NCBI GenBank assembly: GCA_000004695.1
Contig: CM000154.2
Location: 2,432,001 to 2,496,000 of the forward strand
Direction: 5' to 3'
From: Dictyostelium discoideum
Lineage: Eukaryota
Length of the DNA stretch: 64,000 nt
Made by a program: the position numbers and the translations under genes. Below are positions 26,398-28,455 of this stretch, one piece after another; position 1 is the stretch's first letter, and each line of letters opens with the position of its first letter. The notes below the pieces were generated by a model. The model did no database searches, was not told the origin of the DNA, and saw only the letters and a program-made list of their open reading frames with translations.

Positions 26398-26512
26398 TTA
26401 TTATTATTATTATTATTATTATTATTATTATTATTATTATTATTATTATTATTATTATTATTATTATTATTATTATTATTATTATTTATTATTATTATTA
26501 TTATTATTATTA
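26398..26512. repeat. (ATT)n microsatellite, ~35 units.
   Basis: A direct attattatt... run immediately 3' of the capping-enzyme gene. Confidence 0.9.
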
Positions 26513-28455
26513 TTGAGGAAATGGTTGATAAGTTGAAGTTGAAGATTTAGAAGGTTTAATATTATTGATTAATTGAGATCTAATTCTTGACATTTCTTCT
26601 TCCCAATTATCATCATGAGGTAATAAAGGTATACGATATTTCAACTCGTCACTTGATAAGTTCTCAGCGATACTTTCCATTGTATCCATTACGATACTGA
26701 TATAATTACCTTTTTTTTTATCATGTCTAACTTGATGAAATTTCCAAGTTCCCCATTTTGGTTGAAAAGAACATTCAGCTACAACGGTTGAAGTATCTCT
26801 TGCTCTTTGAAATTCTCTTCTTAACTTTTGTAAATCATCATTTGAAAAGTTTACCTCTCTACAATCGACTTCAATATTATCATTGGCCACACAACTTAGA
26901 TACCACCCTTTCTGACCACGATCTCTTACCTTGAAATCTATAGTCCACTTATCACAATATTTCCACTTGAATAATGTATGAACTGTATAATTACTATAGG
27001 CTATATTTGGTGTGAATATAATACCATCAGTATTGTGACATCTTTTCCCATCTGAATAAACTCTTTCACCATTTGGATATTCTTTAATATTTTTAAATAA
27101 ATTTACAATCTTTGATTTAAGTTGGAATGATTTACCCAATATATCAAATGGTGTATCAACCTTTAAATTTGAACGTAATGTTGAAACTACATTACCAATC
27201 TCTGTTAATCTATCTTTTAATAATTTTTGATGATGTAATTCATTCTTTACTGATAAAACATCAAATATTAAAAAATTTGCTCTTTTAGTTTGTAAATTTC
27301 TAACCATTTCACCATCTAATAATGTACCTTCTCCAAATAATGTTACAAGTATACTATATTTATAATAAAAAAATAAATAAAAATAAAAATAAAAAAATTA
27401 AATTACTATTTTATATTTATTTTTTATCAATAATAATAATAATAAATTATAATAACATACTCAAAACCTTGAATTTGATAAAAATCAAATTTTCTATCAA
27501 CCAAATAACAACCAGTATGATCAATTAATAACATATATCTTATACCATCAGTTTTATCACTAACAAAATATTCATTATTTTGAACATGAATAAAATATTT
27601 CTTACCAAAATTTACAGGCATTGAACCAGGAAATGTATCATTTTTTCTTTGTGGAGCACTTGGAATATACTTAAATACTAAATCTCTCAATCTATAAAAT
27701 TCTGAAACATTTCCAACTTTATCTAATGAAATTTCTGGAAATGATGTTTCTCCGCCATTTTTAACTATATTTGTTAATCCTTTAATCTATAAATAAAAAT
27801 TAATAAAAATTAATAAATTAAAAATAAATATAAATAAAAATAATTTTAATATGAATAATTATTATCAATTAATAATTACAGCATTTAAAAAATCATTTAA
27901 TAATTCAGTTAAACTTGTTTTTTCTTGACAAGCTTGAATTGCTTCAGGGAATAATTCAATTTCAACTTCATAAAGTTCTTGTTCAACTGTAGCATTGAAA
28001 TCTGGTCTAACAATAACTTTAGTTAAATCTATTTTCCATTGATCCTCTGTAAATGTATATCTTTGTTTTTCTCGACGAATGATATAACCTGGTGGTAATG
28101 ACAGAGGTGGTGGGAATTTCTCTTCGATTGAGGTTGATATTCTAAAATCATAAATTAAATTGGTTGATTGATCAAAACTAGTTTTATCGGTTTTCTTATC
28201 CTTTCTTAAACATTTCTTTGAATGTTCATCATAGGCTACACGAATTGAATCACTATAAATATAATCTGTCTCTGTGGTTGCTACTGGTTCCGATTTCAAT
28301 TTCAAATGATGATAAAGATCATTCCAATCATCTCTAACCATACCTGGTTTAAATGTATTACCATTTGATGTATTTGAAAATAATCCAATTCTACCTTCTA
28401 CCTCTATTGAATCAATACCACCATGTTGTTTTGATAATTCTATAATTCTATTCAT
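26510..28455 (-). CDS. mRNA capping enzyme: N-terminal TTM-type (Cet1-like) RNA triphosphatase fused to a GTP:mRNA guanylyltransferase. complement(join(26510..27353,27461..27786,27880..28455)).
   Basis: Exon 1 (192 aa) carries TTM motifs IEVEGRIG (ExE, motif A) and EVEIELFPE (ExExE, motif C). Exons 2-3 carry guanylyltransferase motifs I KTDGIRYML (KxDG), III TLLDGEMV, IV DGIIFTP, V LFKWK and VI WKFHQVRHDKKKGN. Donors are GTAATT and GTATGT; acceptors are tatAG and atatAG; phases are consistent. Confidence 0.8.

Follow-up and report, generated by a model that had tools for sequence, protein, structure and literature searches.

A predicted Dictyostelium discoideum mRNA capping enzyme with a Cet1-like triphosphatase and a guanylyltransferase on one polypeptide

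The present analysis concerns a gene within a 64,000-nucleotide stretch of Dictyostelium discoideum DNA (GenBank assembly GCA_000004695.1, contig CM000154.2, positions 2,432,001 to 2,496,000 of the forward strand), which is hereafter called the window and to whose first base the coordinates below refer. The gene, DDB_G0289199 of D. discoideum AX4, occupies positions 26510-28913 on the minus strand, comprises four exons, and encodes a protein of 632 amino acids (aa). In this protein, a triphosphate-tunnel metalloenzyme (TTM) RNA triphosphatase module is followed on the same chain by a complete guanylyltransferase (GTase), a pairing that formed the core claim of a preliminary description made from the sequence alone and that is borne out by Pfam domains, a dedicated profile, the predicted fold, the catalytic residues, and the conservation of the fusion in other species. 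Judged by these features, the locus very probably encodes a nuclear mRNA capping enzyme that would perform both initial capping reactions with a single chain. The four-exon product is identical, residue for residue, to XP_636333.1 / UniProt Q54HV6, whose database records name it a 'hypothetical' or 'uncharacterized' protein; it is already present in the reference proteome as 'hypothetical', together with the Pfam domains discussed here. The gene is laid out as follows.

Exon 1: 28810-28913, minus strand; aa 1-35, including the first two bases of codon 35; missed in the preliminary description.
Intron 1: 28505-28809, minus strand; 305 nt, GT..AG (GTAATA...TTAAAG), 12% GC.
Exon 2: 27880-28504, minus strand; aa 35-243, nearly the whole TTM RNA triphosphatase domain.
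Intron 2: 27787-27879, minus strand; 93 nt, GT..AG, 4% GC, inside the last TTM helix.
Exon 3: 27461-27786, minus strand; aa 244-352, comprising the end of the TTM helix, the connector (aa 252-262), and the N-terminal GTase part with motif I.
Intron 3: 27354-27460, minus strand; 107 nt, GT..AG, 5% GC.
Exon 4: 26510-27353, minus strand; aa 352-632 and the TAA stop codon (26510-26512), comprising motifs III-VI, the OB (oligonucleotide-binding) domain, and the C-terminal helix.

The base composition of the window is 22% GC, and that of the capping-enzyme exons is 25-30% GC. The span of 26510-28455 assigned to the gene in the preliminary description is correct at its 3' end but not at its 5' boundary, because the ATG at 28455 is the internal Met52, from which the frame stays open upstream to 28504; the best database match is the 632-aa D. 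discoideum protein, whose 51 extra N-terminal residues are all encoded in the window. Since the 5' exon had been missed, the start codon then chosen was internal, and the coordinates need to be extended to 28913. Likewise, the exon described as the most 5' does encode the TTM module, but it is the second, and a further exon lies at 28810-28913. The two introns proposed at 27354-27460 and 27787-27879 hold, as the segments 28455 to 27880, 27786 to 27461, and 27353 to 26510 join in frame across GT..AG boundaries, and every one of the motifs listed at that stage (IEVEGRIG, EVEIELFPE, KxDG in the form KTDG, DGEMV, DGIIF, LFKWK, and RHDKKKGN) is present. Plus-strand open reading frames (ORFs) of 53-68 aa inside the gene, with low-complexity, AT-rich translations, were treated as noise.

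The N-terminal module contains the following elements.

TTM (Cet1-like) RNA triphosphatase domain: 27763-28455, minus strand; aa 52-251, spanning intron 2, with the C-terminal helix (aa 230-251) completed by exon 3.
Beta-1 motif IEVEGRIG: 28384-28407, minus strand; E69, E71, R73, and G75, with predicted metal-binding glutamates; aligns to IELEMKFG of Cet1.
Basic strand RREKQRYTF: 28051-28077, minus strand; R179, K181, and R183, predicted to bind triphosphate and invariant in the alignment of fusion proteins; aligns to ERTKDRVSY of Cet1.
Beta-11 motif YEVEIELF: 27949-27972, minus strand; E214, E216, and E218, the predicted second metal-binding glutamate strand; aligns to HEVELEI of Cet1.

A profile search of this exon against the mRNA_triPase model, as proposed in the preliminary description, returned PF02940 above its cut-off of 24 (E value 7.8e-11), with 42.5 bits for the exon-2 product and 38.7 bits for the 581-aa product. 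Because this match covers only the C-terminal half of the Pfam model, a custom TTM profile was built from the N-terminal module alone, using 21 homologues (alignment A3). The custom profile matched solved RNA triphosphatases over the whole domain, namely Pct1 of Schizosaccharomyces pombe (2.8e-21), Cet1 of Saccharomyces cerevisiae (2.1e-18), and Cet1 of Trypanosoma cruzi (TcCet1; 3.7e-14), and it matched the mimivirus triphosphatase domain more weakly (3.4e-5). The AlphaFold2 (AF2) model of the module has a mean confidence (pLDDT) of 92.9 and contains nine long strands; in Foldseek comparisons it superposes on Pct1 with a template-modelling (TM) score of 0.74 and on TcCet1 with 0.70, at a probability of 1.00. 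The module is thus predicted to adopt the eight-stranded antiparallel beta-barrel of the tunnel fold. Conservation of the active sites was assessed in 25 full-length fusion proteins (alignment A1), in which the tunnel residues E69, E71, R73, G75, R123, K139, D154/R156, E162, R179, K181, R183, D194/T196, E214, E216, and E218 are invariant or nearly so; R123, K139, R156, R179, K181, R183, and D194/T196 align with the Cet1 segments LRM, EKR, ERTKDRV, and IDIT. By profile, glutamate strands, basic residues, and fold, the assignment of the N-terminal module as a TTM-type (Cet1-like) RNA triphosphatase is supported.

It might be objected that the domain is not an RNA 5'-triphosphatase at all, being instead either a degenerate scaffold without catalytic function or a CYTH-type enzyme with another substrate, such as nucleoside triphosphates, polyphosphate, or thiamine triphosphate, given the wide substrate range of TTM/CYTH proteins (Shuman 2015, PMC4371356; Ramanathan 2016, PMC5027499), that the Pfam match is partial, and that the activity is read from the sequence. 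Such a role is very unlikely, as the closest relatives in both sequence and fold are specifically the cap RNA triphosphatases (Pct1, Cet1, TcCet1, and the mimivirus and vaccinia enzymes), with CYTH cyclases and ygiF ranking far below them; the tunnel glutamates and basic residues are all invariant across the family, and the domain is covalently fused to the very enzyme that uses its product.

The C-terminal module carries the domains and motifs of a complete GTase.

GTase nucleotidyltransferase domain: 26960-27729, minus strand; aa 263-483, spanning intron 3.
GTase OB-fold domain: 26639-26959, minus strand; aa 484-590.
Motif I, KTDGIR: 27538-27555, minus strand; K321, D323, and G324 invariant, K321 being the predicted Lys-GMP lysine.
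Motif III, LLDGEMV: 27302-27322, minus strand; D365-G-E367 invariant or nearly so.
Motif IIIa, FLIFDVL: 27254-27274, minus strand; F382-D383 invariant or nearly so.
Motif IV, TDGIIFTP: 27008-27031, minus strand; D461-G462 invariant or nearly so.
Motif V, LFKWKY: 26957-26974, minus strand; K481/K483 invariant or nearly so.
Motif VI, RHDKKKGN: 26705-26728, minus strand, in the OB domain; R561, K564, and N568 invariant, D563 nearly so.

These six motifs occur in canonical order. The module matches PF01331 (mRNA_cap_enzyme) at 1.7e-29 and 103.5 bits over aa 300-483 of the 632-aa protein (cut-off 29.6) and PF03919 (mRNA_cap_C) at 1.6e-11 and 45.4 bits (cut-off 26.5); together with PF02940, these matches are far beyond chance. 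Sequence matches to the solved Cgt1, Pce1, and Ceg1 enzymes lie between 1e-22 and 1e-23. The full-length AF2 model (pLDDT 83.8) is matched by Foldseek to Cgt1, Pce1, Ceg1, and the human and 1ckm GTases, for instance Cgt1 1p16 at 4e-24, 4pz6 at 9e-23, and 1ckm with a TMt of 0.82, and it aligns over about 640 columns, that is, over both modules, with vaccinia D1. As the region homologous to Ceg1 starts at aa 264 (residue 18 of Ceg1) and the final TTM helix runs to about residue 251, the two modules are joined by a connector of approximately 10 residues. The Pfam search returned no methyltransferase domain, and the protein ends 42 residues past the OB domain. A cysteine phosphatase at the N-terminus, which the preliminary description had named as an outcome that would count against its proposal, can be dismissed, since the 632 residues hold no HCx5R motif (HC.{5}R), including the HCxxGxxR type, and the Pfam search gave no PF00782 match.

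Outside the two enzyme modules, short segments at both ends are conserved. The N-terminus encoded by exon 1 (aa 1-35) is predicted to be disordered, with pLDDT below 50 for residues 1-44; in the full-length model, residues 621-632 are disordered as well. Within the N-terminal stretch, a basic cluster PNKKSKQ (28863-28883, minus strand) is followed by DPLSSILGDI (28827-28856, minus strand), which together make up aa 11-29, around which AF2 predicts a low-confidence helix. This peptide is conserved in other dictyostelids, and the pattern of a basic cluster followed by D-P-L-x-x-I/L-L recurs at the N-terminus of many fusion proteins from distant amoebozoans (alignment A1, columns 75-110). From the sequence, one may guess at a nuclear localisation signal in the basic cluster and at a nuclear-import or docking role for the DPLSSILGDI region. 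At the other end, the segment of aa 591-632 (26513-26638, minus strand) carries the pattern YRIPL..D.NWEEEM.R.R, conserved among amoebozoan members, with a predicted helix at aa 602-617 after the OB domain; the stramenopile fusion proteins have a related C-terminal pattern, D[FY]..Q..KMK..LL.W.R.

That the two modules belong to one polypeptide, and hence form a real fusion, is supported by several lines of evidence. The same two-module architecture is found in D. purpureum, Polysphondylium, Heterostelium, Acytostelium, and Physarum, and in the fused orthologue of Heterostelium album two introns, which follow aa 43 and aa 240, apparently match introns 1 and 2 of D. discoideum. Two-domain ORFs occur in the transcriptome assemblies of Physarum, Ceratiomyxa, Cavostelium, Clastostelium, Arcella, and Pyxidicula, and an intron-free Logan contig of 1984 nt (run ERR3252990) contains an uninterrupted, dictyostelid-like orthologue of 637 aa, the N-terminal extension included. 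Among 83 homology matches, there was no second Dictyostelium GTase. The alternative would be two adjacent genes wrongly joined, one for a TTM triphosphatase on its own, terminating within intron 2, and the other for the guanylyltransferase. This arrangement draws on the fact that reading exon 2 into intron 2 meets a stop after 4 codons and so gives a self-contained ORF of 196 aa, that a 196-aa product has been called on short Logan contigs (P0091), and that the joining of exons 2 and 3 is taken from the annotated model, sequence logic, and orthologues. It is nevertheless extremely improbable and was rejected on ORF logic, intron position, and orthologous transcripts: the GTase part lacks an ATG ahead of the conserved FPGSMPV, where the ORF list shows only a TTG-started ORF of 87 aa; intron 2 is a canonical GT..AG intron of 4% GC that splits the last helix of the TTM domain; Heterostelium has apparently the same intron position along with the fusion; and the two-domain ORFs run uninterrupted in the six amoebozoan transcript assemblies and in the intron-free dictyostelid contig.

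The read-through ORF (product P0091) lies at 27865-28455 on the minus strand and ends in VIIN before the stop codon, and D. citrinum has a truncated model of 267 aa (P0086). Both the 196-aa product and the 267-aa D. citrinum model are gene-calling artefacts; retention of intron 2, if it occurs, would give a stand-alone TTM protein.

Taken as a fused enzyme, the protein would act in two consecutive steps. Glutamates E69 and E71 of beta-1 and E214, E216, and E218 of beta-11 are predicted to hold a divalent metal in the TTM tunnel (aa 52-251), in which R123, K139, R156, R179, K181, and R183 would hold the 5' triphosphate, and the domain would hydrolyse the gamma phosphate of pppRNA to leave ppRNA. 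In the second step, K321 of the GTase (aa 263-590) would attack GTP to form a Lys-GMP adduct, from which GMP would be moved to ppRNA to yield GpppRNA, with the OB domain and its motif VI (RHDKKKGN) closing over the nucleotide. As the polypeptide ends about 40 residues past the OB domain, guanine-N7 methylation would have to be carried out by a separate protein. The covalent link would ensure a 1:1 stoichiometry and the co-recruitment of both activities to RNA polymerase II, and the fusion would thereby take the place of the non-covalent Cet1-Ceg1 partnership of budding yeast.

Several considerations weigh against this assignment. The PF02940 match is limited to profile positions 113-221, in the C-terminal half of the model, and the N-terminal half of the TTM domain is recognised only by the custom profile and the fold prediction. 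The exon joins in D. discoideum rest on the annotated model, sequence logic, and orthologues; no D. discoideum transcript contig was found, and the exact 632-aa protein is on record from genome assemblies only. The literature searched yielded no biochemical or genetic data on this protein, and its oligomeric state, its binding to the C-terminal domain of polymerase II, and its nuclear localisation are all inferred.

A comparison with known capping enzymes places each module in an established family. The TTM module resembles Cet1 of S. cerevisiae, Pct1 of S. pombe, and the Cet1 enzymes of T. cruzi and T. brucei (PF02940) in its fold, the ExE of beta-1, the ExExE of beta-11, and the basic tunnel residues, and, like TcCet1, it is a compact TTM domain of about 200 aa (TM score normalised to target, 0.71). 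Unlike the fungal and kinetoplastid enzymes, which are separate chains that meet the GTase, if at all, by protein contacts, the D. discoideum TTM domain is joined to it covalently, and no peptide resembling the Ceg1-docking WAQKW is visible in its connector or linker sequence. Both Cet1 and Pct1 form homodimers (Shuman 2015, PMC4371356). The GTase module shares the nucleotidyltransferase and OB domains and motifs I, III, IIIa, IV, V, and VI with Ceg1, Cgt1, Pce1, and the enzyme of Chlorella virus PBCV-1, but, in contrast to these stand-alone enzymes, it is preceded by a triphosphatase and followed by a conserved C-terminal helix.

Enzymes that combine both activities differ from the D. discoideum protein in other respects. 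The RNGTT/Mce1 enzymes of metazoans, plants, and Trichomonas likewise carry an N-terminal triphosphatase and a C-terminal GTase on one chain, and the GTase halves are homologous; their triphosphatase, however, is a metal-independent cysteine phosphatase of unrelated fold and mechanism with the HCx5R motif, whereas the D. discoideum protein lacks both HCx5R and PF00782. The phosphatase domain is present, in contrast to the D. discoideum protein, in the viral ORF L001 and in the Tritrichomonas protein P0077. Because the animal and plant fusion uses a non-homologous triphosphatase, the D. discoideum fusion is parallel to it and not a stage of one series; to call the locus an intermediate in the evolution of the capping apparatus, as the preliminary description did, is therefore misleading, the more so as the fusion is lineage-wide. 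The LEF-4 proteins of baculoviruses and nudiviruses have the same TTM-then-GTase order and were found by the fold search at an E value of 8e-13, but they are only 11-12% identical, superpose poorly, and serve as a subunit of the viral RNA polymerase. To our knowledge, LEF-4 is the only previously characterised polypeptide with these two activities, TTM then GTase, and without a methyltransferase. The poxvirus D1, African swine fever virus (ASFV) NP868R, mimivirus R382, and other enzymes of the nucleocytoplasmic large DNA viruses (NCLDV) also share the order of the first two modules; unlike D1, NP868R, and R382, the D. discoideum enzyme has no third, guanine-N7 methyltransferase (MTase) domain, the identity is 10-19%, and the GTases fall into separate clades.

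L001 itself (1867-3942 of IMG/VR contig 3300050343_000299) encodes a cysteine-phosphatase-GTase of 692 aa with a VHCTHGFNRTG motif, a fusion of the metazoan/plant type that shows 29% identity to the Dictyostelium GTase half.

The spread of the fusion among cellular organisms was surveyed by scanning 1.84 billion cluster representatives with the TTM profile, which gave 4105 matches at E <= 1e-3; among the best 150 of these, 75 of the 137 newly returned proteins have a GTase domain C-terminal to the TTM domain. Named amoebozoan fusions come from Dictyostelia, Myxogastria (Physarum), Ceratiomyxa, Clastostelium, Cavostelium, Arcella, Pyxidicula, Balamuthia, and Mastigamoeba, and named stramenopile fusions from the chrysophyte Chlorochromonas danica and the diatom Chaetoceros neogracilis. 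The cellular TTM-GTase family of Amoebozoa and ochrophyte stramenopiles is marked by PF02940, PF01331, and PF03919, the lack of an MTase domain, and a short conserved connector, all of which are found in the D. discoideum protein. The fusion is accordingly lineage-wide in Amoebozoa and ochrophyte algae and not peculiar to this locus.

In two of the amoebozoan proteins, the TTM-GTase unit lies inside a longer sequence, namely Balamuthia P0135 (1114 aa, annotated 'HAT C-terminal dimerization domain') and Mastigamoeba P0199 (2303 aa, annotated 'protein kinase domain containing'); these long proteins are probably merged gene models.

Viral relatives were sought in IMG/VR, where 45 loci were found, most of them with a GTase alone, and a few giant-virus contigs encode TTM-GTase-MTase proteins with 21-24% identity to the D. 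discoideum protein. A contig of 330,611 bp encodes a stand-alone GTase of 333 aa, and the solved 1ckm capping-enzyme chain has 330 aa; both correspond to Chlorella virus PBCV-1. The fold search of viral models in BFVD returned separate, unnamed TTM-like (about 183 aa) and GTase-like (about 333 aa) matches. The Chlorella virus parallel drawn in the preliminary description consequently fails, and a fusion of the Chlorella virus type was rejected, given the stand-alone GTase in both the 330.6-kb contig and 1ckm. With both modules aligned, the same search returned Clandestinovirus (3e-30), pithoviruses, marseilleviruses, and ASFV NP868R (2.9e-21), and many NCLDV enzymes align over 600-800 columns with the full-length model, TTM then GTase. 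The likeness to mimivirus-type enzymes had also been overstated, in that the mimivirus, pithovirus, and ASFV enzymes are TTM-GTase-methyltransferase proteins and not bifunctional ones. The viral ORFs L011, L027, L035, L037, and L044 run hundreds of residues past the GTase into what is apparently a methyltransferase region (assigned by eye).

Three of these, L027, L035, and L037, are very AT-rich ORFs of more than 1500 aa that run off their loci; they start as TTM-GTase-MTase, and the 700 or so additional residues, if not more, that follow seem to include a second methyltransferase-like region. By their appearance, they are multifunctional capping proteins of unusual length.

Neighbour joining on 309 columns of the GTase domain, with 200 bootstraps, gave a tree that was built without fungal and animal sequences and says little on deep relationships; it recovered the amoebozoan fusion proteins as a clade with 100% bootstrap support, the stramenopile fusion proteins with 93%, and four viral ORFs of the TTM-GTase-MTase type (L011, L027, L035, and L044) as a separate clade with 90%. 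In its topology the fused GTases of cells group with one another and the viral enzymes fall outside them, although the monophyly of the cellular group has less than 50% support; the tree speaks against the Dictyostelium gene having come from a virus recently and is compatible with either a single or a multiple origin of the cellular fusion. An insertion derived from a giant virus, with an NCLDV-type capping enzyme in place of an ancestral cellular one, would fit the TTM-then-GTase order and the 600-800 aligned columns of many NCLDV enzymes, the TTM-GTase-MTase proteins on giant-virus contigs, and the fact that amoebae are hosts of giant viruses. The chance of such an insertion is nonetheless very small: the viral proteins are only 21-24% identical, the long viral ORFs continue into an apparent methyltransferase that is absent here, the viral and amoebozoan proteins form well-supported separate clades, and the TTM profile lies far closer to the fungal and trypanosome enzymes than to that of mimivirus. 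Moreover, the gene has spliceosomal introns, two of them at positions apparently common to Heterostelium, and a host-like base composition, and the fusion was found in every amoebozoan lineage sampled. A viral origin was rejected on the identity, the missing MTase, the tree, the introns, and the base composition.

A further and rather doubtful reading is that the TTM-GTase fusion may be an ancient cellular architecture (Amoebozoa and ochrophytes, possibly older), from which the viral TTM-GTase(-MTase) enzymes of NCLDV and LEF-4 would have descended and of which the separate Cet1/Ceg1 proteins of fungi, apicomplexans, and kinetoplastids would represent a secondary fission. If true, this would overturn the usual scheme, in which the separate TTM and GTase are ancestral and fusion is a metazoan/plant innovation.

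The remaining features around the gene are as follows.

Near-perfect (ATT)39 microsatellite: 26397-26514, no strand; starts inside the TAA stop codon and occupies the beginning of the 3' untranslated region of the capping-enzyme gene.
Long T/A-rich tract: 26296-26395, beyond the microsatellite.
ORF of 206 aa: 22071-22691, plus strand; strong match (101 bits) to the Thg1 domain PF04446 (tRNA-His guanylyltransferase / 3'-5' polymerase); the capping-enzyme gene lies some 4 kb away.
Arginase-family ORF (PF00491): 24763-25653, plus strand.
Histone-fold ORF (PF00125/PF00808): 25743-26267, plus strand.
Major Facilitator Superfamily fragment: 29603-30463, minus strand; PF07690 at 31.7 bits, just under the cut-off of 33.4.

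The Thg1 ORF presumably belongs to the set of four Thg1/TLP genes in D. discoideum and likely has further exons, and the nearness of two unrelated 'guanylyltransferases' looks coincidental. The arginase-family, histone-fold, and Major Facilitator Superfamily neighbours have no obvious functional link to capping.

Reviews and comparative papers assign a separate TTM triphosphatase and GTase to fungi and protozoa and the cysteine-phosphatase-GTase fusion to animals, plants, and Trichomonas (PMC2904801, PMC4371356, PMC5027499, PMC5172449), and Dictyostelium is listed among the organisms with a metal-dependent triphosphatase by Stiller 2004 (PMC5172449), citing Hausmann et al. 2005. No description of a cellular TTM-GTase fusion was found in the full-text literature searched; Hausmann et al. 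2005 and Benarroch et al. 2008 may mention the Dictyostelium fusion. As yet uncharacterised, the protein belongs to enzyme families that are already known, and its arrangement has precedents among viruses; nothing mechanistically new is implied, and the family-wide distribution is a modestly interesting comparative point. The family constitutes a third cellular layout, a TTM domain fused to a GTase, which has been kept throughout Amoebozoa and also occurs in a chrysophyte and a diatom. The linkage of the first two capping steps has accordingly arisen in cells with two unrelated triphosphatases, a convergent architecture, and 'fusion versus no fusion' is weakened as a phylogenetic character. 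The family also provides a cellular counterpart to the viral TTM-GTase modules, and, as D. discoideum is genetically tractable, its enzyme could be used to examine the recruitment of a covalently linked TTM-GTase to RNA polymerase II.

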